Shown: positions 1,409 through 55,886, numbered from the stretch's first letter. The stretch is 64,000 nucleotides of DNA from Candidatus Latescibacterota bacterium (GCA_965205975.1 OZ242195.1:144202-208201); one strand, 5' to 3'. Program-made: numbers and translations. Notes: generated by a model not told the origin, from the letters alone.

Positions 1409-1447
1409 AGGTACGCCCATTATTAAGCTGTGTTGTGACAAATTGTA

Positions 1448-3193
1448 TTATTTTTTTACCACTGGACCTGTAGGCGCTTCCTTGCTGTACAATGTACTGC
1501 CTCGCTCGTAAGACGAGACGACTGAACCGTCGGCAATTTCCAATCTGGGTACGTTTTTTTCGAATACATCGCGGTCGGGTCCGCGCATGACTGCCATCTG
1601 TTCGTCGGTCATGCCCGAGACGAGATCGCCCCACCGTTTTTCTGGATGGGTCAATTCTCCTCCGCTGCGATTGAAATTGCGCGATGAGTATTTGTGCAAA
1701 ATTCCCCGCCGCGAGATGTCGCTTTTCCACGCCAATGTGCCATGTGTGGTGCCTCCGTCCATGAAGAAGAGCACATCGCCCGCTTTCATTTCGACGTGTT
1801 TGACCAATCCCATGTGGTCATCGCAGGTGCGCACGCCCGGGGGGAGTGAATAATACGCTTTGTGCGATCCCGGCACACACGCAAACCCACCGTCGGCTTC
1901 GGTCACGTCGCGCAATTGCCATGTCACAGTTACGGCTTCGCAATAGCTTCGCCCATTTTGATAGATATATCCGCGCCCTGGATTGAGTGGCTCATTGGAG
2001 TCGTGCAGGGAATGGCCCGATGTGCCTTTGACCGCACAAAATGCCGTTCCTCCGCCCGTGCGACCACCACTGGCACCCATCCAGTTTAGCCGATGTTCAA
2101 CGGCCGGATGGGCGAGCATTCTTCGAAATGGGTCACAATGGGGACCGGGCAACTGAGTCAGTCCACTTAACAGGGGTCTGCCCGTGCCCGCGAGGCTTTT
2201 TGACCCGCGTGCGAGTTCGTCGCCAACGACGATTCGATCTTCAAATTTGTCAATGGCGGCATTGGCCTGTGTCAGCCATTCACCATCCATGATCCCGCGC
2301 AGTACCAGGTACCCGTTTAAGTCCCAAAAGTAAAATTCTTTTTCGTCAATGCCCGAATTTGGATTTTTAATCAGGTAAGATGGGTGAAAAATTTCGCGGG
2401 ATTCGTCCAATGTGATTGTCTCGCCATCTGTTTTCAAAGTCGGTGGCGGCGTTGTATTGCGATATCCGGGGCGATATAGTGATGCGCGCTGTTCAGGTGT
2501 TAGTTCTGCCATTGAGTCGGATACTGGCATTTTATCTGATTCAGGGCTAGGTCCCGCAGAACGGATCACACCGCGGCCTACATATTCGTAGGATAGTAAG
2601 CGTTGCAGTCCCTCGCCTTGCCACGGACGCATGCCCTGTACTACGCTCAGGCCAACGATGAGCATATCGCCCGCTTTTAATTCGGGTTGAAAAAGATAAT
2701 CCGAGTCATCTACACCGGTCAATATATCTTCTGGTGTTTCCACATTTGACTTGTGTGTACACGGTACGAATACAAATCCGCCGTCGCCAGCTTTTACGTC
2801 CGAGAGTGCCCAGATTACGCGCACGCCTTCGCAAAATCTTCGACCGTTCTGGTAATAATATGCGAGTGCGGGATCTCGCGGCTCATTGCCACCTGCCAGG
2901 GGGGCAGAGGTGTCACAGGTTTCGTTACACAGAATTTCGGGGGCGCGGTCGAGCCTGAAACCGTGTCCCACAATTTGATTCAGATACCACACGAGTTGGG
3001 GATGGATCAACAAATCGCGGAATGGCTCGCGCAAATCATCTTCCCATCCGAGCATGCCCTCGAGCGATCCCGCCCGATCAATCGCATCGTTCAACCGCGC
3101 GACTTCGGGACGGGTCAGGACCCCCGATATATGCAAATAGCCCGTTAAATCAAAGGCGTAATTCTCTTCGTTTGTCATCGTTTCCCGGTCCAT
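1448..3193 (-). CDS. tandem-duplicated phytanoyl-CoA dioxygenase (PhyH) family protein: a degenerate N-terminal copy plus an intact C-terminal copy
   Basis: Two homologous ~280-aa halves. Copy 1 has YAFDLTGYLHISGVLTRPEVARLNDAID ... YYYQNGRRFCEGVRVIWALSDVKAGDGGFVFVPCTHKS. Copy 2 has FYFWDLNGYLVLRGIMDGEWLTQANAAIDK ... YIYQNGRSYCEAVTVTWQLRDVTEADGGFACVPGSHKA. Copy 2 keeps the HD metal-ligand pair (SLHDSNEP) and the distal His (TTHGT); copy 1 has GG and no distal His. An AAGGAGG RBS precedes the ATG at 3193. Confidence 0.7.
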   Translation of the reverse strand: MDRETMTNEENYAFDLTGYLHISGVLTRPEVARLNDAIDRAGSLEGMLGWEDDLREPFRDLLIHPQLVWYLNQIVGHGFRLDRAPEILCNETCDTSAPLAGGNEPRDPALAYYYQNGRRFCEGVRVIWALSDVKAGDGGFVFVPCTHKSNVETPEDILTGVDDSDYLFQPELKAGDMLIVGLSVVQGMRPWQGEGLQRLLSYEYVGRGVIRSAGPSPESDKMPVSDSMAELTPEQRASLYRPGYRNTTPPPTLKTDGETITLDESREIFHPSYLIKNPNSGIDEKEFYFWDLNGYLVLRGIMDGEWLTQANAAIDKFEDRIVVGDELARGSKSLAGTGRPLLSGLTQLPGPHCDPFRRMLAHPAVEHRLNWMGASGGRTGGGTAFCAVKGTSGHSLHDSNEPLNPGRGYIYQNGRSYCEAVTVTWQLRDVTEADGGFACVPGSHKAYYSLPPGVRTCDDHMGLVKHVEMKAGDVLFFMDGGTTHGTLAWKSDISRRGILHKYSSRNFNRSGGELTHPEKRWGDLVSGMTDEQMAVMRGPDRDVFEKNVPRLEIADGSVVSSYERGSTLYSKEAPTGPVVKK

Positions 3194-3305
3194 GTCAGCC
3201 TCCTTGACCTCGATTTACCTGTTTGCCTGCCGGTATGCAGGCATGAATGTGGCGGTTTATTCATGAAATGTTCAAATTGATGCAAAAAACAAGTATAAAA
3301 TGAAA

Positions 3306-3333
3306 CCCCTCTTGACCGATTGCTTGACGCATC
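3306..3333. repeat. 28-bp direct repeat, copy 1 (cccctcttgaccgattgcttgacgcatc)
   Basis: Near-identical copy at 4375..4404 (ccccttcttgaaccgattgcttgacgtatc). Each lies about 110-150 bp upstream, in gene orientation, of a minus-strand gene (starts 3193 and 4225). Internally it contains GTCAAG-N6-GTCAAG on the minus strand. Confidence 0.6.
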
Positions 3334-3409
3334 CTCAAAACTATCTATACAAAAAAACTGCCCATATAAATAGAAATGGGCAGTTTGATGATTCATTCTG
3401 AAGTACAGT

Positions 3410-4225
3410 TTAGTTTCTTTTTTCGGGAATGCTCCCTTCCTTAATCATGCGATTTTCTGGAGGGGCAGGTCGCTCCGGTGGGGTCGATGGTGGGGGATTT
3501 GCTGGCGAATTAGATGGTGGGGGATTTGCTGGCGAATTAGATGGTGGGGTACTCTCGCGGTTCATCGTTTTTTCCTCCAATGAAGAAATTTCATGAAAAT
3601 TATCTATTCGAATCCGGTGGATTTTTTCTGGTTTATTAAGATCCGCATACAGGAAAGGCACGCTACACACCAAGGCACTACATAGCGTAAAAATAAGAAA
3701 TAAATTGGCCGAATGCAACCTTTCAGATTTTGAGTCATTATTCCAGGTATTTTCATTTGTCGCTGAAATATACTTTTGGGACAAAAATTCTTGGAAATCT
3801 TGTTCCGCTAACTCCTCAGGTTCTGGATAGTCCTTTTCCCTGGGTTCTACACCATAATATTCCTCTAAAGACTTATAGTAATCAGATAAATTTCTATGAT
3901 GCTGAAGCAATTCGTCGTAGTAGGTTTTGAGCTCTCCAGGTGTCTCAATAAAAGCGTACGTGCGTCCATAAAAAGATCGTATAAGATGGTAAACGGCTTT
4001 TAAAAAGAATATCGTTGATATCCCTAAAAAAAGTAAAAAAATGAACGTGGTAGGAGTTGAGAAATCATAGGGAAATTCTTTTACAAAAAATCCTAATAGA
4101 CCCCCCAAAACAATTAAAACTCCTGTGGGTAAATTGAGGGATGTTCTGAGTTGATTTTTGCGTTCTATTTCCAACAAATACTGATCTTTGATAAAATCAA
4201 AATCCATTCCTATAGATTTCCTCAC
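3410..4225 (-). CDS. hypothetical membrane protein (3 predicted TM helices) with a C-terminal PPSNSPANP tandem repeat
   Basis: 271-aa ORF with an AGGAAA RBS and hydrophobic segments LPTGVLIVLGGLLGFFV, TFIFLLFLGISTIFFL and LFLIFTLCSALVCSVPFLY. The C-terminus is PPSNSPANPPPSNSPANPPPSTPPERPAPPENR. The gene is about 38% GC against roughly 52% in the flanks. No family could be recognised. Confidence 0.5.
   Translation of the reverse strand: MRKSIGMDFDFIKDQYLLEIERKNQLRTSLNLPTGVLIVLGGLLGFFVKEFPYDFSTPTTFIFLLFLGISTIFFLKAVYHLIRSFYGRTYAFIETPGELKTYYDELLQHHRNLSDYYKSLEEYYGVEPREKDYPEPEELAEQDFQEFLSQKYISATNENTWNNDSKSERLHSANLFLIFTLCSALVCSVPFLYADLNKPEKIHRIRIDNFHEISSLEEKTMNRESTPPSNSPANPPPSNSPANPPPSTPPERPAPPENRMIKEGSIPEKRN
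3487..3549. repeat. 27-bp tandem repeat, 2.3 units (atggtgggggatttgctggcgaattag)
   Basis: Read directly in the sequence. The units are in frame and encode the PPSNSPANP repeats of the 3410..4225 protein. Confidence 0.8.
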
Positions 4226-4374
4226 CTAAGAACATTAGTATGGTTTAGAAGCTATTTTAAAATTTCTAACAGCGCAGACACTACCTGATGCCCAGTGTGG
4301 TGACTTTTCAGTAAATAATACGAGAGAAGGCAGTTCAATGCAACCTTGGATTCTTCATGGAAAGCCCAAACTGA

Positions 4375-4404
4375 GCCCCTTCTTGAACCGATTGCTTGAC
4401 GTAT
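4375..4404. repeat. 28-30 bp direct repeat, copy 2
   Basis: See copy 1 at 3306..3333. It lies in the divergent intergenic region between the membrane-protein gene and the PLD-helicase gene. Confidence 0.6.
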
Positions 4405-4489
4405 CTGATGGGTCTTTGTACATTGCCCTAATTCTTTTTGTGAATACCATGACTGAGTAACTTCATTTGATGATTTAAGGACACTATTT

Positions 4490-5443
4490 ATGACTACCCA
4501 TTCCGACCTCACATTCATCACAAATGAAAAAGGCCAAAATCTTCTTGAGCGGTTTAAGGTGCTGATCAAAGACACAGAATTTTTTGATGTCCTCGTCGGC
4601 TATTTTTATACCAGTGGTTTCCACGCGCTTTATCGATCACTGGAGAGAACGAAAAAGATCAGAATTCTCATCGGTATCAGCACGAATAGGCAAACACTCA
4701 ATCTGATTGAGCAGGCACGCCAGCAAGAGCTTCAATTTTCCCACGCGGAGACGAAGGAGCATTTTTCCGATCTACTTATTGGAGAGATGGCAAATGTTGA
4801 AGATAACAAGAAGGTTGAACAAGGAGTGACAAAGTTTTTGGAGTGGCTGAAAATCGGAAAGTTGGAGATTAAGGCGTATCCCACGGAGAATATCCATGCC
4901 AAGCTCTACATCATGTCTTTCGGTGAGGACGACCGTGACGTTGGGCGTGTGATCACCGGGTCGAGCAACTTCACGCAGTCCGGCCTGGTAGATAATCTTG
5001 AGTTCAATGTAGAACTCAAGATGCGCTCCGATTATGACTTTGCCAGGCAGAAGTTTGAATATCTCTGGGGAAATGCTGTTGATGTGAAAGATAAATATAT
5101 TGAGACCATTCAGAAAAACACATGGCTTAATAATGCTATTACTCCCTACGAGCTTTATCTCAAGTTTCTCTATGAATATTTCAAGGATGAGCTTCGCCAA
5201 ACCGATGAAGTGATCTTCAAGTACATTCCAACGGGGTTTAAGCGACTGGAATATCAGGAACAGGCCGTCCTGAACGCAAAAAAGATTCTTGAAGAGTACG
5301 GTGGGGTTTTTATTTCAGATGTCGTGGGACTTGGAAAAACTTATGTATCCGCCATGCTGGCAGGCCAATTGTGGAGTTACCCCGCTTCGGTGGAGAGTTT
5401 AGGGCTTGTGTATCAAGCCTGTGATAGATGCAACTTTTCATAA
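4490..5443 (+). pseudogene. 5' fragment of a PLD-family nuclease / SNF2-like SF2 helicase fusion gene, truncated after helicase motif I
   Basis: The HKD phospholipase-D nuclease motif is present (HAKLYIM..x..GSSNFTQSG). The helicase Q-motif and Walker A follow (YQEQAV ... DVVGLGKTYVSAML). The ORF then ends abruptly at 5443, where the IS3 remnant begins. Proteins of this architecture are usually around 1000 aa. The fragment is about 40% GC, with an AAGGA RBS. Confidence 0.65.
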
Positions 5444-5444
5444 G

Positions 5445-5906
5445 CTATCGGCGCATAGTAGGCGATGGAAGAATGCCTGCGATGCGGATTATACCATCCT
5501 TCCAAGTGGGTACATAAGTGATGTCAGCCACAGTGAGTTTATTGACCGTTGGCACAGTAAAGTCGCGCTTTACCAGATCAGGAGCCTTATCAGACCGTTG
5601 CGCCTTACGCGTCGTTTGCGTGCTCTTGCGGCGAGAAACGCCACAAATGCCCATCTCACGCATCAGACGCGCTACGCGCTTCTTACCTACAAGGATACCC
5701 ATATCCATCAGGTCTTTAAAGATGCGAGGGGCACCATAGGTGCTATCTGATCGGGTATGAAAGGTCTTGATATGCTTCTTCAAGTCTGCATCAACCTTTG
5801 CTCGTTTAGAGGGTGGACCTGCTCGCCAGGCATAATACCCACTGAGGGAAACACCCAGGACTCGGCATTGCGTGGCGATAGGCCAAAGGGCCTGGTGCGC
5901 TTTCAC
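5445..5906 (-). pseudogene. IS3-family transposase OrfB, N-terminal fragment only
   Basis: See the mobile element entry. The catalytic rve domain is absent. Confidence 0.7.
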
Positions 5907-6217
5907 GAACGCGAAGATTTTCCAGGGATCGCGTCGGTCTCCGCTGCGAACCAGGCCGCTGCTTTTGACAATATCTCGCGCTCGATGCGCAACTGCTTAT
6001 TCTCACGTCGAAGACGACGTAACTCTTCGCGCTCATCGCTCTTCAGACCATCTTCTCGAAGGCCCTCATCTCGATCAGCCTGGCGTATCCAGTTTTGGAT
6101 CGTCTGAGCGGTTGGCTCAAACTCTTTGGCCAACTCGGATGGAGAGCGACCAGCGCGCACAAGCTCAACGATCTGGCGCTTCAACTCGGATGGATAAGGC
6201 GGACGTGTTGGTGGCAT
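5903..6217 (-). CDS. IS3-family transposase OrfA (HTH)
   Basis: See the mobile element entry. 104 aa with a GAAAGGAG RBS. Confidence 0.75.
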   Translation of the reverse strand: MPPTRPPYPSELKRQIVELVRAGRSPSELAKEFEPTAQTIQNWIRQADRDEGLREDGLKSDEREELRRLRRENKQLRIEREILSKAAAWFAAETDAIPGKSSRS

Positions 6218-6620
6218 AGTGGGTCTCCTTTCTTACTACTCATAAGGTACCCACCGAAACGGGTCAAGTCCATCAGAAAGTTACTACTTAAAGATGAGAA
6301 GTTTGCTCACATCCGCTACCTTGATCCTGAGAATCAAAAAAGCCAAAAGAAGCAACTCTATAATCCCAACATTCTGCAAGAGTTGGATAAGTATTACCGG
6401 AAGCATGAGAAGTCTGATAAGCGCTCGTGATTTCTTGCTATATTCGCTATGCGTAGTGTTATTATCTCCTGATCCGGAACTATGGGTATCTTGATAGTGC
6501 CGAAACCAAACCCATTATGAAAAACCAAAATGTAATCGGAAGATCAGCAAATCGTGGATCTGTGGACTTGATAGATATTGCTGAACAAGGTGTGGATGAA
6601 TAGTTTTGATAGGTATCACA

Positions 6621-8054
6621 ATGGCAAGGTCTCGTCCCAATATCGTACTTGTAATGTGCGACCAGATGCGCTGGGATGCGGCTGGTTTTGCGGGTAGTTC
6701 TGTTGTTCACACGCCCCATCTGGATCGTCTATCCGAGGGTGGTGTGTGCTTTGAAAATGCCTATTGCGCTTCTCCTGTTTGTTCGCCCGCTCGGGCGAGT
6801 TGGTTAACCGGGTGCTATCCCCATGCTCACTTGCAATTGCGAAATTACGGGCCACAACGAGGAAAAGACTGGGGGAGTTATCTGCCGCAGGACCGCGTTA
6901 CAATGGGGGATGTTTTGAAACGCGCGGGATATCGCTGTGGCATGGTTGGTCCGTGGCATCTGGGCGATGATCATGCCCCGCAACACGGGTTTGAGGATTT
7001 CTGGCAGACCTATCGATATCTCGGCGACGAATATACAGATCCTCTTTTCGATTATTTCGAACGCGAGGGGGTACCCAATCTCTACAGCGATAAGGAAGCC
7101 GTCACGCAATACGGAAATATTCTGGCGTTTACGACACTTACAGATCCGCGACAGCAGCGTACGACCTGGACGGTTGACCGCGCGATTGATTTTTTGCGCC
7201 AGCGAGAAGATGACCCGTTTTTTCTTTTTGTGAGTGTTAAGGATCCGCATCCCCTCATCGTTATCCCACCCGAATTGCTTGAACTCTATCCGGTAGATCA
7301 AATGCCCTTGCCTGATTCTCTGCGAGACCCACTTGAGGGTAAACCGGATTTTCAAACCCGCACAAAATTTCGCATGCCCAATACAGTGACAGATCGGCAG
7401 TTCCGCGAGATGATGGCGTACTATTACGCCCTGATCACCCATATTGATGCGGAGGTCGGGCGTCTGATTGGCGTTCTTGAAGAACAGAATATGCGCGACA
7501 ATACGCTCGTGGTTTTTATGAGCGATCACGGCGAACTGCTCGGCGATCACGGTTGCACAGAAAAGTGTCTGATGTACGAAGCCTCGGTCAGAGTTCCTTG
7601 TCTGCTTTCGTGGCCGCGTGCGCTCCCAATGGGTTTGCGCGTGACGACCCCGCTTGCCGGTGTTGATTTGATGCCGACTTTGCTCGATCTGGCAAACGAG
7701 GCGTTGCCCGAGAAAATCGATGGTCGTTCCGTTGCGGACGCGATCCTGAATGGTCGGCAGCCGAAACCTCAGCCCATTTTTGCCGAAATAGCCAGCCAGG
7801 AAGCCATTTATTGGGGGTCAACAGAAAGGGAGCAGTTTGCCGCGCATGTGATGAATTTCGATGGTCGCTGGAAGTATATTCGCAATCGTTTTGATATCGA
7901 TGAATTGTACGATTTAGAGACAGATCCGGGCGAAATGCAAAATCTCGCGCAGCTTTCCGAATATCAACCGCGCATTATAGCTATGCGCCAGCAAATCGCC
8001 GAGATGATTTGCCATACAGGCCCTGGTCCCTACGACTGGTGTTTGCAAGTGTAG
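6621..8054 (+). CDS. sulfatase (formylglycine-dependent arylsulfatase family), no signal peptide
   Basis: N-terminus MARSRPNIVLVMCDQMRWD and the sulfatase signature C-S-P-A-R in AYCASPVCSPARASWLTG. The C-terminal GDHG motif is also present (SDHGELLGDHG). Confidence 0.85.
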   Translation: MARSRPNIVLVMCDQMRWDAAGFAGSSVVHTPHLDRLSEGGVCFENAYCASPVCSPARASWLTGCYPHAHLQLRNYGPQRGKDWGSYLPQDRVTMGDVLKRAGYRCGMVGPWHLGDDHAPQHGFEDFWQTYRYLGDEYTDPLFDYFEREGVPNLYSDKEAVTQYGNILAFTTLTDPRQQRTTWTVDRAIDFLRQREDDPFFLFVSVKDPHPLIVIPPELLELYPVDQMPLPDSLRDPLEGKPDFQTRTKFRMPNTVTDRQFREMMAYYYALITHIDAEVGRLIGVLEEQNMRDNTLVVFMSDHGELLGDHGCTEKCLMYEASVRVPCLLSWPRALPMGLRVTTPLAGVDLMPTLLDLANEALPEKIDGRSVADAILNGRQPKPQPIFAEIASQEAIYWGSTEREQFAAHVMNFDGRWKYIRNRFDIDELYDLETDPGEMQNLAQLSEYQPRIIAMRQQIAEMICHTGPGPYDWCLQV

Positions 8055-8077: not shown

Positions 8078-9025
8078 ATGAGGGAATCAACAGATCTTGC
8101 GGAGGATGGTGCTATTCCATTTGAGGTGTTTGCGGGTTTTGAGCGGCTTGAGGATGTTAACCCTATCATTGCCTGCGAGCCGCCAGAGTGGGCAGCCGCA
8201 GCCCATGCATTTGTGATGGATGATACGGTGCACTATTTGTGGGGAAGAAGAAAAGAAGGCAATTATTGGGTTTTAATGCATAGCACAGCTCCGGTGAAAG
8301 ATCCCGCAAAGATCGCGCACGATTCGCGCAATCCCGTGCTTTTGCCTTCGGGCGAGGGGTTTGACGATTATACAATCGAATATCCTTTTCCGTTTTGGAA
8401 TCCCGCCGATGGCAGGTTTTATGTTTATTATTTGGGGCGACGACAAAAGCCGCCAAAGCAGACTGGTCTATTGGTGGGCGATGGCGATTTTGGCAAGTGG
8501 ACGCGCGTTTGTCAGACGCCTGTGATTGCCTCAGATACCGCGCATGAGCGGCAGGGTTCGTCGCATCCCTCGGTTGTGGTGGTAGATGATACCATACATA
8601 TCATTTATACGGGGGAGTCGGCAGAGCCGCCGACCTTATGCCACGCGACCGCGCCGACAAGCGATCCCGCGGCTGTTACCAAAGATTCCGCAAATCCCAT
8701 TTTTACGGGTAGCGGAGAAATGTGGGATAGTTGTGGTGTCCGAGAGGCTGAGATTTTTAAGGGTCCACAGTATTTCCATCTCTTTTACGGGGGGTCCGAT
8801 GGCGAGGCCTGGCGGATTGGGCATGTGCGAACGCGCGATTTTCGCACCTTTGAACCCAATCCACACAATCCAATTTTTTCGCCCTCGCCAGATCCCGATG
8901 CATGGGACTGCGACGGGATACTAACGCCTCAGGTGATTGAAATTGACAACCGCTACTACATGGTCTATGCGGGTATGCGGGGGCGTGAGTGGCAGACGGG
9001 ACTCGCGGTAACGCGATCTGTATGA
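8078..9025 (+). CDS. five-bladed beta-propeller glycoside hydrolase-like protein (GH43/GH130-like fold)
   Basis: Repeated blade-like segments, for example VHYLWGRR ... YWVLMHSTAP, RFYVYYLG, TIHIIYTGES, YFHLFYGGSD and RYYMVYAGM. An AAAAGGAGGA RBS precedes the ATG at 8078 and there is no signal peptide. Family assignment is tentative. Confidence 0.5.
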   Translation: MRESTDLAEDGAIPFEVFAGFERLEDVNPIIACEPPEWAAAAHAFVMDDTVHYLWGRRKEGNYWVLMHSTAPVKDPAKIAHDSRNPVLLPSGEGFDDYTIEYPFPFWNPADGRFYVYYLGRRQKPPKQTGLLVGDGDFGKWTRVCQTPVIASDTAHERQGSSHPSVVVVDDTIHIIYTGESAEPPTLCHATAPTSDPAAVTKDSANPIFTGSGEMWDSCGVREAEIFKGPQYFHLFYGGSDGEAWRIGHVRTRDFRTFEPNPHNPIFSPSPDPDAWDCDGILTPQVIEIDNRYYMVYAGMRGREWQTGLAVTRSV

Positions 9026-16197: not shown

Positions 16198-16582
16198 TGG
16201 TGGAGGCGGCGGGAATCGAACCCGCGTCCGAAAGCAGTTTGATAACGGCATCTACGTGTGTAGTCTATTCACTTAGGATCTCGCATCTCGCGCCCCAACA
16301 GACAGGGTCGCTGAGATGCCAGCCCGATGGTTGGGGCTGTGGCCCGCTCTCATCCGGAGGCCCTCGAGCGGAAACCCCCGCACCAGCCTGCTCTCGTCGG
16401 CGCTCTGCCCAGACCACGCAGGCAAGGTCTGAGAGAACGGACTGCGTAACGGTTAGTTAGGCAGCCATTGCGTACGTGTTATCGTCCGCAGTTGCGTTTT
16501 TTCCCAATTGTTTTACGAGGTGATTGGGCACCTCGACACGCAGCTATTATCTCCCCACCCCCGTCGAAGCCGTGTCGCCCCC
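16198..16582 (-). ncRNA. ssrA: transfer-messenger RNA (tmRNA, SsrA)
   Basis: The 5' end is GGGGGCGACACGGCTTCGACGGGGGTG, the tmRNA tRNA-like 5' consensus. The 3' end is GCGGGTTCGATTCCCGCCGCCTCCACCA (T-arm plus acceptor/CCA). The internal tag reading frame is GCA ACT GCG GAC GAT AAC ACG TAC GCA ATG GCT GCC TAA, giving ...ATADDNTYAMAA-stop, matching the canonical ...YALAA degradation tag. Confidence 0.9.
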
Positions 16583-21550: not shown

Positions 21551-22408
21551 CTACGCGATTTCTCTTAACAGGCGGTTCAGAGATGCCCAACTACCTATCG
21601 CGCCGAGCACGGTGCCCAATACCACCAGACCGAATGCCAGTTCAATCGTTGGTGTGACCGTCAAGTCCGGTACGCGAACAGCCCACGAGGGTGATATATA
21701 AGCCATCATCAGAGGTGCCAAAAATCCACCGACAAAGCCCAATAGTGCCCCCCCAACTCCAAAGATCATCCACACAGTCGTATTTGTCGCGCCGACCAAC
21801 CGCATAATCTCAAGGGCATCGCGCTGCGCCAGCACCATCAACTTGGTTGCATGGCTCACTGCAAATACACACGCAAAACACAGCATACACCCAAGTGCGA
21901 GCCCAATTCCGGTGGTTACTTCAATAAAATGCTCTAAAGAATCCACCCAAACTTCACCTACGTTTACACCTTCTACAGCACTATGGCTGGCTACATATCT
22001 TGCAACGGCTCGAGCGCGGCGCGGCATATTCTCGCCGGGAGAAATGCGTACTCTAAGCGAAGCGGGCAATGGGTTGCTCGAAAGCGCATCGACCGTACCC
22101 AAACCAAATAGTGACCGAAATTCTTTGGCAGCCGCTTCCTGATCCATATACACAATCCCGCCTACCTCGGGTCTCGCTTCTAACCTGCGCCGCAACGCGA
22201 GTATTCGCTGAGATGAAACGCCATCTTTCAGGTAAATGTCTATCTCCACCCGCGTGCGCAATCGGTTAGCCAGAGCGTTTCCACTCTCGATCACCTGCCA
22301 AAAGAATCCCAATACCAGCAGTGAGGCTCCAATGGTCACCACTGAAATCACACCTGCGATTCCCGTGCGCCTGATCCCTTGCAATGCCTCGCGCAATACT
22401 AGATTCAT
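21551..22408 (-). CDS. ftsX: cell division ABC transporter permease FtsX
   Basis: MNLVLREALQGIRRTGIAGVISVVTIGASLLVLGFFW ... a periplasmic loop and three C-terminal TM helices (the FtsX/MacB 4-TM fold). The start is taken at the ATG at 22408; a TTG at 22429 is an alternative. Confidence 0.8.
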   Translation of the reverse strand: MNLVLREALQGIRRTGIAGVISVVTIGASLLVLGFFWQVIESGNALANRLRTRVEIDIYLKDGVSSQRILALRRRLEARPEVGGIVYMDQEAAAKEFRSLFGLGTVDALSSNPLPASLRVRISPGENMPRRARAVARYVASHSAVEGVNVGEVWVDSLEHFIEVTTGIGLALGCMLCFACVFAVSHATKLMVLAQRDALEIMRLVGATNTTVWMIFGVGGALLGFVGGFLAPLMMAYISPSWAVRVPDLTVTPTIELAFGLVVLGTVLGAIGSWASLNRLLREIA

Positions 22409-29924: not shown

Positions 29925-30002
29925 TGGCGGGGTAGACGGGGCTCGAACCCGCGACCACCGGCGTGACAGGCCGGTACTCTAACCAGACTGAGCTACTACC
30001 CC
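29925..30002 (-). tRNA. tRNA-Asp (GTC)
   Basis: GGGGTAGTAGCTCAGTCTGGTTAGAGTACCGGCCTGTCACGCCGGTGGTCGCGGGTTCGAGCCCCGTCTACCCCGCCA folds into a cloverleaf with a 7-bp acceptor stem, anticodon loop CTGTCAC and an encoded CCA. Confidence 0.9.
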
Positions 30003-34874: not shown

Positions 34875-36668
34875 TTAAGAATTTACCTCGCGGAATCCTT
34901 TGGGCAAATCTTCTCCTTTCACAAGTGCGGCCTTCAATGCGCGTGAGTGCTGACAATTTCCTCTGTATTGAAATCCGCGGCAGGCACAGGACACGTCGTT
35001 TCCATCTACTTCTAATTCGTAAAAAGCCCCCGGTCGTGACGAACTTTCCGCGCGATACTTTGCAATTTTGGGTCCACTCAATACTCGTGCCAAAATCTCA
35101 ATAGCTTCTTGAGATGGTTGTTGTCGTTCAACTGGTTTACCTGTGCCAAATGCCTCTGCGTGCGTTTCCCGAAAGGCCGCGCTTGCCTCGCGCAATACAT
35201 CGCCCATTTTCGTCCCGTCCATATTTGCAGATAAAGCATCTACTCCGGGTTGCAATACATCCATAATGCGTCGCATTTCACCCATCACGTCACGATGGAA
35301 ATCTTCGGGTAGCGCGCTGCCTTCCACCATCTGATCGATCAAATTCGCTTTTGTTTCCAATACTGTGCGCACAAATGTATCAACTGTATCGCGTCCAACC
35401 ATGTACGTCACATTTACCGTACCGGTCTGACCAATGCGATAAGCCCGGTCTTCGGCTTGCCAGTGATTAACCGGTACCCAGTCCAGGTCGTTAAAAATGA
35501 CCTGGCGAGCTGCTGTCAGGTTTAGCCCCACGCCGCCTGCTGTGATATTTGCCAGTAATAATCGCACGTCATCGTCTTCCTGAAACCGATCCGCCCTTTC
35601 TTGCCGTTGTGCTACCGGCACTTCACCTGTAATGACCACGGCCTGGTCGCCAAATTTTGTTTTTAAAATTTCCAGTGGGCGCAAGAAGCACGAAAATACT
35701 ATCGCTTTTTCTCCTTGATCCACCACATTTTCTACAAAGGGCAATGTCGTTCGCACTTTGGATGTCGCCAGGCGAAGCCTTGCTCTTGTCAACTGTCCCA
35801 GCGCCTGCCCCCGTTCTTCAGATGAAGGGGATTCTTCTAAAGTCTCTCGCACTCCTCGTCGAGAATATTTCCGCAGGAGATCCAGAACGGCTGTGCTCAT
35901 TCGATGTGCGACCCGACTCGATACATCCACATCTAACCACGTCCGTATTTTGGGTGGCAAATCCAGGACCTGATTCTTTGTCCGCCGCAGCATTATTCCG
36001 TGCAAATGTACGGTTAATTCTTCGATATTACTCGCGCCATCTGTTATCCAGCCATATTCCCCCTTATGCGCATCGCAATACCGTTTTGCAAACCCCATAA
36101 AGCTGCGTCCCAGAGCGTGTCGAGCAAGTTGTAGCAATGGGAATAGATCTCTTGGCCGACTCGTCAGGGGGGTGCCTGTCAAGATATGCACCACTGTTTC
36201 TTCGGGTAATTGCTTTACCAGTTGCATGGAAAATTTGTGCCGCTGACTGCGGTGGTTTTTCAAATAATGCGCCTCGTCAAAGACAACGCCTTTCCAGTCC
36301 AGCGCGCATAATGTATTGATGTGCTTGCCCAGGATATCGTAATTGACAATCGCCCAGCCTTTAAACCCCGACCCGGGTGGATCGTCCGGTCCAATAATCC
36401 ATGTCTGTACACGCGGTAGAACAACCGCAATTTCTCTCGCCCAATTGCGTTTTACTGTTGCCGGACAAATCACCAGATACGGTCCTTTGGGTTCGGTTTG
36501 TGACATGGCAATCACGGACTGCCGCGTTTTGCCCAGTCCCATGTCATCGGCTAAGATCGATCGCCGCCGCCCCATCAAAAACGCGATGCCCTCTACTTGA
36601 TGTGGATAAAGTCCTTTGGCGATATCTGTTGCACGGTTGAGTATTGCTGTATCGAATGTTTCTGCCAT
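34875..36668 (-). CDS. SNF2-family helicase with a C-terminal SWIM zinc finger
   Basis: Helicase motif I ADDMGLGKTRQSVIAM, motif II DEAHYLKN and C-terminal helicase motifs. The C-terminus has a CxCx(n)CxH SWIM-type finger (VSCACRGFQYRGNCQHSRAL). The start is MAETFDT at 36668. Confidence 0.75.
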   Translation of the reverse strand: MAETFDTAILNRATDIAKGLYPHQVEGIAFLMGRRRSILADDMGLGKTRQSVIAMSQTEPKGPYLVICPATVKRNWAREIAVVLPRVQTWIIGPDDPPGSGFKGWAIVNYDILGKHINTLCALDWKGVVFDEAHYLKNHRSQRHKFSMQLVKQLPEETVVHILTGTPLTSRPRDLFPLLQLARHALGRSFMGFAKRYCDAHKGEYGWITDGASNIEELTVHLHGIMLRRTKNQVLDLPPKIRTWLDVDVSSRVAHRMSTAVLDLLRKYSRRGVRETLEESPSSEERGQALGQLTRARLRLATSKVRTTLPFVENVVDQGEKAIVFSCFLRPLEILKTKFGDQAVVITGEVPVAQRQERADRFQEDDDVRLLLANITAGGVGLNLTAARQVIFNDLDWVPVNHWQAEDRAYRIGQTGTVNVTYMVGRDTVDTFVRTVLETKANLIDQMVEGSALPEDFHRDVMGEMRRIMDVLQPGVDALSANMDGTKMGDVLREASAAFRETHAEAFGTGKPVERQQPSQEAIEILARVLSGPKIAKYRAESSSRPGAFYELEVDGNDVSCACRGFQYRGNCQHSRALKAALVKGEDLPKGFREVNS

Positions 36669-36767
36669 AGAGATGACCGGTTTAGTGAATTTAGTTGCTT
36701 TTAATAGAAGTCTTTTCTTTTTTAAATATAGTTTATACTTTGCTTTTTGCAATCGGCAAACTATTAA

Positions 36768-55810: not shown

Positions 55811-55886
<76 letters not shown>

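Follow-up and report, generated by a model that had tools for sequence, protein, structure and literature searches.

A probable dead restriction-modification-type defense cassette, reduced by an insertion sequence-associated deletion of 6.4 kb, in a Candidatus Latescibacterota genome

Results

Gene organization of the low-GC segment

A Candidatus Latescibacterota bacterium (GCA_965205975.1) carries, in a stretch of 64,000 nucleotides (OZ242195.1:144202-208201; hereafter the window, from whose first letter all positions are counted), a low-GC segment with pieces of two plus-strand genes on either side of an insertion sequence (IS) of the IS3 family. One piece belongs to a helicase-nuclease gene combining phospholipase D (PLD, with HKD motif) and SNF2 domains and the other to a DUF3644/HEPN gene, and a gene for a protein with three transmembrane segments (3-TM protein) lies divergently beside them. 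In this study, we describe this segment and compare it with intact relatives to reconstruct the restriction-modification (R-M)-type defense cassette from which it appears to derive. The features are as follows (ORF, open reading frame; L numbers denote loci of other genomes or contigs).

4472-4489, plus strand: start of the cassette, upstream leader; homology to L015 (OZ242311.1), at an unrelated genomic site, begins at 4472
4490-5371, plus strand: 5' remnant of the PLD(HKD)-SNF2 helicase-nuclease gene, codons 1-294 of 1064, with the PLD domain and motifs Q and I (Pfam, PADLOC and NCBIfam matches)
5372-5443, plus strand: IS-derived extension of the ORF, 23 codons (WSYPASVESLGLVYQACDRCNFS) and a stop; the sequence beyond 5371 is the right end of the IS
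5372-6272, minus strand: IS3-family element, 901 bp, internally deleted and non-autonomous (alignment to the full copies L044 and L045)
6271-6430, plus strand: 3' remnant of a DUF3644/HEPN gene (PADLOC PDC-S19), last 52-53 codons and a stop (PADLOC match, identity to L010)
3410-4225, minus strand: 3-TM membrane protein gene, which flanks the hot spot and lies outside the restriction cassette
6431-6605, no strand: low-GC spacer between the cassette and a conserved sulfatase gene at 6606-8054 (blastn against L006, L008, L009, L010, L012 and L013)

GC content was recomputed over the whole 64 kb in 1200-bp intervals (mean 50.5%, SD 3.1). It was 38-39% at 3201-4489, 44% across the helicase fragment (4490-5380), 54% in the IS interior, 39-40% at 6266-6605 and 51-52% in the flanks. 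The lowest value, 38.2%, was found at 3501, and all intervals below 44% lay within 2901-4401 except for one at 22401. The low-GC patch reported in a preliminary description of this DNA was thus reproduced, and it is the deepest dip of the window.

The truncated helicase-nuclease gene

The ORF at 4490-5443 encodes 317 amino acids (aa) and matches Pfam PLDc_2 at residues 30-193 (E 2.7e-11) and the NgoFVII-type PLD domain (RE_NgoFVII, E 2.7e-07). Its PLD motifs are HxK at residue 136 (H136-A-K) and GSSNFT, and its helicase motifs are a Q-like LEYQ at about residue 255 and motif I, GLGKT, at residue 280, which is spanned by a ResIII match. Pfam and motif reading therefore agree with the PLD domain followed by SNF2 motifs Q and I that had been described here. 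The match of the fragment to PADLOC PbeA covered residues 16-296 (E 2.8e-14). Compared with the 1064-aa proteins of two relatives, L008 and L010, the fragment corresponds to residues 1-294 with 96.6-96.9% aa identity, which establishes the truncation and excludes a normal short protein. The fragment's 294 native codons, 28% of the helicase gene, are free of frameshifts and stops. The complete SNF2 ATPase (SNF2-rel_dom and Helicase_C), present in both L008 and L010, is missing in the window, where only motifs Q and I are left. The last 23 codons are encoded by the inverted-repeat end of the IS; the junction of helicase and IS, previously placed at 5440-5450, is in fact at 5371/5372.

In the 294 shared codons, 13 synonymous and 3 non-synonymous changes are private to the window; the corresponding values for intact relatives were 20:3, 18:4 and 11:5. 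Because the 13:3 pattern resembles that of the intact genes, the deletion looks recent, and the fragment lineage looks to have spent most of its history under purifying selection.

No intact helicase paralogue was found within the 64-kb window by tblastn. The suggestion that an intact copy might be uncharacterized holds in so far as intact orthologues exist in relatives, but these belong to a kind of module that is already catalogued. A 625-aa ORF at 34875-36752 (minus strand) has weak similarity (26%) to the SNF2 N-lobe of the cassette helicase and is an unrelated helicase, not an intact paralogue. A naturally split or always truncated gene was also considered, prompted by a first list of homologues in which no protein exceeded 552 aa. 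It was rejected: intact 1064-aa proteins occur in L008, L010 and L015-L042, and the first list had lacked long proteins. Two metagenome contigs show the helicase as a pair of ORFs, 552 + 480 aa in L001 (10001-13128) and 477 + 494 aa in L004 (10001-13352), and several database homologues terminate at 551-552 aa, for which a split variant and a sequencing frameshift are both candidates. The L004 contig bears a low-coverage label (3.40x), and its split may be an assembly frameshift.

The tail and the DUF3644/HEPN gene

The 54-aa tail matches positions 283-328 of the 330 of the PADLOC PDC-S19 profile (E 2.8e-14) and is 94-96% identical in aa (93.9% in nucleotides) to the last 52-53 residues of a 333-aa protein of L010. 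The L010 protein matches PDC-S19 end to end (E 1.3e-134) and is assigned by Pfam to DUF3644. By homology, the tail is the 3' stump of this third cassette gene and therefore not the helicase C-terminus: the 165-bp low-GC tail noted earlier (6266-6430) is real, but its assignment to the helicase is replaced by the match to the L010 DUF3644 gene end. The C-terminus of the methylase described below was tried as another source, and tblastn and blastn against L008 gave nothing; the L010 DUF3644 gene matched instead. A word-index homologue search with the 54-aa tail returned no candidates.

DUF3644 has been placed in the HEPN superfamily, where it occurs in R-M operons (PMC3710099), and the DUF3644 protein HEC-08 defends against phage in a manner that requires its Rx4-6H motif (bioRxiv 10.1101/2024.01.29.577857). 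Like these DUF3644 HEPN proteins (the EC042_2821 family of PMC3710099, HEC-08 and PDC-S19), the L010 gene closes an R-M operon. By contrast with full DUF3644/PDC-S19 proteins of about 330 aa, the window retains only the last 52-53 codons; deleted with the rest is the N-terminal HEPN part, in which any Rx4-6H motif would lie.

The ancestral cassette and the 6.4-kb deletion

Close homologues of the 3-TM protein were limited to nine clusters with 72-91% identity, and their contigs are syntenic with the window. The conserved flanks consist of Gfo/Idh/MocA, PhyH-family dioxygenase and 3-TM genes on one side and sulfatase, GH130-like and beta-helix protein genes on the other. Between them lies a variable cargo:

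L008: 1064-aa protein with PLDc_2, SNF2-rel_dom and Helicase_C, then a 955-aa Eco57I/N6_Mtase/MmeI_Mtase protein
L010: 1064-aa helicase, methylase read as 214 + 874 aa, 333-aa DUF3644 gene
L011: helicase, running off the contig
L006: 147-aa ORF
L009: DDE_Tnp_1 IS and a 90-aa ORF
L012: 215-aa ORF
L013: 159- and 47-aa ORFs

The small ORFs (147, 215 and 159 + 47 aa) had no match in Pfam or PADLOC. Judged from these cargoes, the interval from the 3-TM gene to the sulfatase gene (approximately 4232-6605 in the window) is a strain-variable integration hot spot.

DNA alignment by blastn matched window positions 1409-5371 to L008 and 2322-5371 to L010 with 88-91% identity, and homology broke exactly at 5371 in L008, L010 and L011. 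It resumed at 6271-6497 with L010 (93.9%), at 6604 with L008 and at 6567-6611 with all loci. Positions 596-7028 of L010 (6,433 bp) are missing from the window, with the 901-bp IS in their place. The loss begins with helicase codon 295, ends at about codon 281 of the DUF3644 gene and comprises 770 helicase codons, the whole methyltransferase gene and approximately 281 codons of the HEPN gene. The loss is therefore 6.4 kb and not the roughly 0.7 kb once estimated. No methylase homologue was found anywhere in the 64-kb window by tblastn. The comparison shows, with gene functions as predicted from domains, an ancestral cassette of three co-directional genes for the helicase-nuclease (1064 aa), a type IIG-like N6-adenine methyltransferase (about 1090 aa) and the DUF3644/HEPN protein (333 aa). 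Between L008 and L010, the methylases resemble each other as far as residue 700-740 or so and diverge beyond, which fits a swappable target-recognition part.

We also observed an intergenic repeat of 40-60 nt in constant orientation, at 3297-3333 and 4368-4405 in the window (core ACCGATTGCTTGACG at 3315 and 4387), at 8946, 9774, 10855 and 12799 in L006 and in one or two copies in L008-L014. It sits between the PhyH, 3-TM and cargo genes in every syntenic relative and scarcely elsewhere; the window has 4 matches with at most 2 mismatches versus 0.14 expected. The repeat could be a shared regulatory site or a recombination site of the hot spot.

The IS3-family element

The following parts were assigned within the IS (5372-6272), all on the minus strand.

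5372-5393: right inverted repeat (IRR)
5413-5510: C-terminal remnant of orfB
approximately 5502-5510: deletion junction
5493-5906: N-terminal part of orfB
5903-6217: orfA
6251-6272: left inverted repeat (IRL)

The element resembles IS3 members in its orfA with HTH_Tnp_1 (6217-5903), its orfB with HTH_21 (and with rve in full copies), its TG...CA termini and its imperfect 22-nt repeats. The orfB-derived ORF (5906-5445) covers positions 95-238 of the 369 of the NCBIfam IS3 transposase profile, and the C-terminal peptide THLEGWYNPHRRHSSIAYYAPIAYEKLHLSQA matches positions 348-369; no rve (DDE) domain was found in the window copy. The inverted repeats, 5372-5393 (TGGAGTTACCCCGCTTCGGTGG) and the reverse complement of 6251-6272 (TGGACTTGACCCGTTTCGGTGG), are identical at 18 of 22 positions, start with TG and are the same ends that bound the full copies. 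The earlier view of a decayed IS3 element that had lost its catalytic orfB half and one terminus was thus correct for the catalytic half, but both termini are present.

An identical OrfA occurs in two complete elements on other contigs (L044 and L045), whose orfB carries rve. The full IS is 1256 bp long, starts with TGGAC and ends with CTCCA, and the L044 copy is flanked by a 4-bp duplication, GTAA. The window copy aligns on both sides of a 355-bp internal gap (positions 771-1125 of the full copy), which extends from just after DITYVPTW to just before EGWYNPHRRHS, corresponding to the DDE core, with a few bases of microhomology at the junction. On this alignment, the window copy arose by deletion from a true IS3 member and differs from it in lacking the DDE core; it is non-autonomous for that reason and could move only with a transposase supplied in trans. 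No second copy of this IS was found within the window. Divergence between the window IS (5372-6272) and L044 (2946-4201) is mosaic, with 7 differences over 315 nt in orfA, all synonymous, and 45 over 402 nt in the N-terminal part of orfB, which suggests either recombination between IS variants or differing constraints.

No target-site duplication of the 3-4 bp usual in the IS3 family was found at the window IS, whose flanks are CAATTG| and |TCAGAA; the associated 6.4-kb deletion accounts for its absence. In these two respects, flanks that are not contiguous in the ancestor and no duplication, the locus resembles IS-mediated deletions.

Distribution of the helicase-methylase module

In a scan of one genome per species, 1064-aa PLD-SNF2 proteins with 65-95% identity were found in Latescibacterota, Nitrospirales, Bacteroidota, several CPR lineages, Dehalococcoidia, Bdellovibrionales, Thermodesulfobacteriota, Opitutaceae and Gammaproteobacteria, and more distant copies in Rhodothermales and in a Methanobacteriaceae metagenome-assembled genome (MAG; 55-68%). 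These identities imply that the cassette has spread between more than 10 phyla by broad and very recent horizontal transfer. L015, the closest copy with a named source, from a Candidatus Latescibacterota MAG (OZ242311.1; 95% aa identity), shares only 4472-5371 with the window and sits among unrelated flanks, which indicates that the cassette is mobile.

Wherever a full helicase and sufficient sequence were available (22 of 22 loci, from more than 10 phyla), a methylase homologue lay directly downstream on the same strand. This pairing identifies the Eco57I/MmeI-type N6-adenine methyltransferase as the real partner of the helicase; the DUF3644 gene was present only in L010 among the full-helicase loci compared. 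In PADLOC, the L008 helicase matched C3a139 'HKD+Snf2' (E 3.4e-42) ahead of DrmD, BrxH, HmaA and DpdE, and the methylase matched REase_MTase_IIG PDLC03596 (1114 bits). The NCBIfam scores for DrmD, PglX and 'phospholipase D-like anti-phage protein' were all far under their cut-offs. A Parabacteroides plasmid carries the two genes under the annotations 'SNF2-related protein' and, next, 'N-6 DNA methylase'. Cj0031-like type II R-M coding sequences beside PLD and SNF helicase coding sequences are listed among programmed-inversion loci (PMC9881135). Downstream of the methylase and on the strand opposite to it, we observed extra inverted copies of its C-terminal, target-recognition part in L021 (14558-14977 and 16079-16873) and L031 (14496-15308). 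They suggest phase-variable specificity by inversion, consistent with that listing.

Other 5' helicase remnants were found in L002 (10001-13579), L005 (10001-11056), L038 (8001-9922), L039 (8001-9436), L040 and L041, and they stop at differing residues (111, 117, 141, 196, 346 and 458). In L039, helicase residue 141 is joined directly to methylase residue 900; in L038, the remnant ends with residue 196, beside a transposase of the DUF4372 + DDE_Tnp_1 type; in L002, it reaches residue 458, and an IS3 element lies 1 kb downstream. An integrase gene also lies nearby in L038.

The 3-TM protein

The 3-TM protein has 271 aa if read from GTG and probably 265 aa from the ATG at 4207. Three hydrophobic segments of the 271-aa form, at residues 30-48, 60-78 and 175-193, agree with the 3-TM description of this divergent gene. 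The proline-rich C-terminal tail contains PPSNSPANP twice, encoded by an exact 27-nt tandem duplication (3486-3539), which is common to P0121 and P0123; other relatives have a diverged version that is one residue shorter. Just 3' of the stop lies an imperfect palindrome (3355-3386; ACTGCCCAT...ATGGGCAGT), a possible terminator that the consensus terminator scan did not call.

The gene is 80-91% identical in eight syntenic relatives irrespective of the cargo and persists in the helicase-free loci L006, L009, L012 and L013, and no 3-TM homologue was found in the 22 helicase-methylase loci from other phyla. It is therefore a positional neighbor and not a part of the cassette.

An exhaustive phmmer search gave 1,320 representatives (clusters at 50% identity) with E<=1e-3, mostly of 170-270 aa, and 417 with E<=1e-10. 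Its members have two transmembrane helices at the N-terminus and a third one besides, and the motifs RSYxGxxYxYIP and NxxNNDxKS are conserved among them. The family had no match in Pfam, which holds no model for it. The window protein matched PycTM of PADLOC weakly (E 2e-4); among 32 sampled members, 7 matched PycTM weakly (best 4e-6), 2 an RT-associated SLATT and 1 a CBASS 2TM effector. The AF2 model was confident (pLDDT 87) and matched only generic helical bundles in the PDB. No nucleotide cyclase or other sensor gene was found beside the 3-TM gene in the window or the syntenic loci. Single-protein scans for distant members in viral and metagenome contigs gave nothing, and tblastn of the family against plasmids gave one weak match. 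It is conceivable, though rather doubtful, that the family is an uncatalogued membrane-disrupting abortive-infection effector, stand-alone or activated in trans, that marks a defense-island integration site.

Other features of the window

No Rfam family was found in the island region, and no tRNA gene adjoins it. The tRNA-Asp (29925-30002) and tRNA-Lys (55811-55886) genes and a tmRNA gene (16198-16582; tag ADDNTYAMAA), all on the minus strand, lie elsewhere in the window, none of them next to the island. Promoter and terminator scans of the region did not rise above the shuffled background.

Discussion

Relationship to named defense systems

Intact relatives have the same two-gene layout as the Cj0031-like type IIG R-M with PLD/SNF helicase, the helicase lying directly upstream (PMC9881135); the window differs from it in retaining 28% of the helicase gene and no methylase, and L010 in adding the DUF3644 HEPN gene. 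No biochemical study of the PLD-SNF2 and methylase pair was found in the literature.

Three elements of the cassette have counterparts in Class 1 DISARM (DrmA, DrmB, DrmC, DrmD and DrmMI): the SNF2 helicase in DrmD (PADLOC E 2.1e-34; NCBIfam E 9e-37), the PLD nuclease in DrmC and the large N6A methylase in DrmMI (E 1.7e-35). However, PLD and SNF2 are fused in one protein here, the DrmD score in NCBIfam is 127 bits against a cut-off of 610, and L008 and L010 hold only two or three genes between the conserved flanks, with neither DrmA nor DrmB/DUF1998 in the intact relatives. The type IV enzyme SauUSI has the same domain order as the cassette helicase, namely PLD, SF2 helicase N-lobe and Helicase_C, and ends in DUF3427, a reader of modified DNA; a Pfam scan found no DUF3427 in the 1064-aa L008 protein. 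PbeA of DndCDEA-PbeABCD (PMC6459918) also shares this order, with partial similarity, but neither dnd nor pbeBCD genes accompany the helicase in the window, L008 or L010, where the neighbors are the 3-TM, methylase, DUF3644 and sulfatase genes. Unlike PbeA and SauUSI, the cassette helicase is of the SNF2 type and is partnered by a methylase, which points to a modification-protected rather than modification-dependent system. In type-2 BREX-related (BR) systems, the effector combines an HKD endonuclease and a Swi2/Snf2 helicase in one protein, and self DNA is shielded by an N6-methylase (PMC12839542). The intact cassette shares the N-terminal HKD-SNF2 fusion and the N6-methylase with them, but the DUF499 ATPase and DUF3780 that they require appear neither among the genes of L008 and L010 nor in Pfam scans of these loci.

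Proposed function and loss of the cassette

From its domain content, the strict gene linkage and analogy to DISARM, BREX-related systems and CglI/NgoAVII-type enzymes, we infer that the intact cassette would be an ATP-dependent R-M system. The N6-adenine methylase would label its recognition sites in host DNA, incoming DNA without the label would be attacked by the SNF2 motor, driven by ATP and equipped with the PLD nuclease, and the HEPN RNase could serve as an embedded back-up effector.

In the window, an IS3-family element adjoins helicase codon 294 at one end and about codon 281 of the HEPN gene at the other, with loss of the 6,433 bp between. The non-contiguous flanks and the absence of a target-site duplication argue for an IS-mediated deletion, by recombination between two directly oriented IS copies or by intramolecular adjacent deletion. 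A single event would have eliminated three parts at once, namely the helicase motor, the methylase and the catalytic region of the HEPN protein. A cell can survive the joint deletion of restriction and modification genes, since no restriction activity is left once the protective methylation ceases. The IS is itself shortened by 355 bp, with the DDE core among the bases deleted at a short microhomology.

The segment is thus very probably a dead R-M-type defense cassette at a strain-variable hot spot from which an IS-associated deletion removed 6.4 kb. The system is dead because the motor, the methylase and the N-terminal HEPN domain are gone, and the 317-aa ORF most likely has no function and merely remains from a recent event. 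The core of the preliminary description, a defense-type module whose truncated PLD-nuclease/SNF2 helicase is interrupted by a decayed IS3 element in a low-GC patch, is supported by these results.

Several points weigh against this interpretation or parts of it. The restriction of unmethylated DNA is deduced from domains and gene order, and either deletion route fits the sequence equally well. In L010, the model for the ancestor, the methylase at 1434-4699 is split into overlapping 214- and 874-aa ORFs, which may reflect a frameshift, an assembly error or an inactivated methylase. The absence of a non-synonymous excess in the fragment would also fit ongoing selection, and 5'-end remnants recur in six other loci (L002, L005 and L038-L041), a count that is biased toward 5' ends since two of the six search patterns lie within the N-terminal 200 residues. 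The last two points bear on the idea that the fragment has been domesticated, as a selected 317-aa stand-alone dimeric PLD nuclease (like Nuc or the BfiI N-domain) or a regulator expressed from an intact cassette promoter. Its PLD domain is complete (HxK, GSSNFT), its native codons are undamaged and its substitutions are as conservative as those of intact genes. However, a recent deletion predicts the same substitution pattern, half a RecA lobe followed by 23 IS-encoded residues is unlikely to fold, and the remnants elsewhere, whose detection is biased, stop at many points between residues 111 and 458 with no favored domain boundary. We therefore consider domestication improbable.

The junctions are those of the assembly, and IS copies are classic points of collapse, so that a whole cassette flanked or interrupted by two IS copies could have been collapsed into one. 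Such an artefact is very improbable here: the window lies within a 5.56-Mb contig, the size of a complete chromosome, which suggests rather than establishes long reads that usually span 1.3-kb repeats; the retained IS has a private 355-bp deletion and 8-10% divergence from full copies; and similar natural remnants occur in other complete MAG chromosomes (beside a transposase in L038, as the 141-to-900 join in L039). It is harder still to maintain the original model, in which the PLD-helicase and the divergent 3-TM gene form one module, the IS inserted and then lost an end with about 0.7 kb, and the tail is the helicase C-terminus. The helicase and 3-TM genes are indeed adjacent and divergent in the window, L008, L010 and L011, and the 3-TM protein does weakly resemble PycTM effectors. 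The two genes never occur together in the 22 other helicase loci, which pair the helicase with the methylase, and the 3-TM gene stands beside other cargo in four helicase-free loci, so the side-by-side arrangement holds in the close relatives but does not define a module. The DUF3644 origin of the tail, the 6.4-kb loss and the two preserved IS ends also speak against this model, which we regard as hardly tenable.

Implications

With an IS-associated deletion of a defense cassette as the preferred reading, a 317-aa 'HKD family nuclease', a 100-aa 'transposase' and a short hypothetical ORF are best labeled as pseudogene pieces of a single restriction cassette with a defective IS, and these pieces should not be counted as a defense system. 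The kind of cassette is already catalogued, the window copy is an inactivated member and its fate is ordinary genome decay. The locus is nevertheless a clean, fully reconstructible case of one IS-associated deletion that removed restriction and modification genes jointly, and it records a strain-variable defense hot spot in marine Latescibacterota-like symbionts. It also offers two possible starting points. One is the helicase-methylase pair, biochemically unstudied despite 65-95% identity in more than 10 phyla; the other is the 3-TM family, which has no name.

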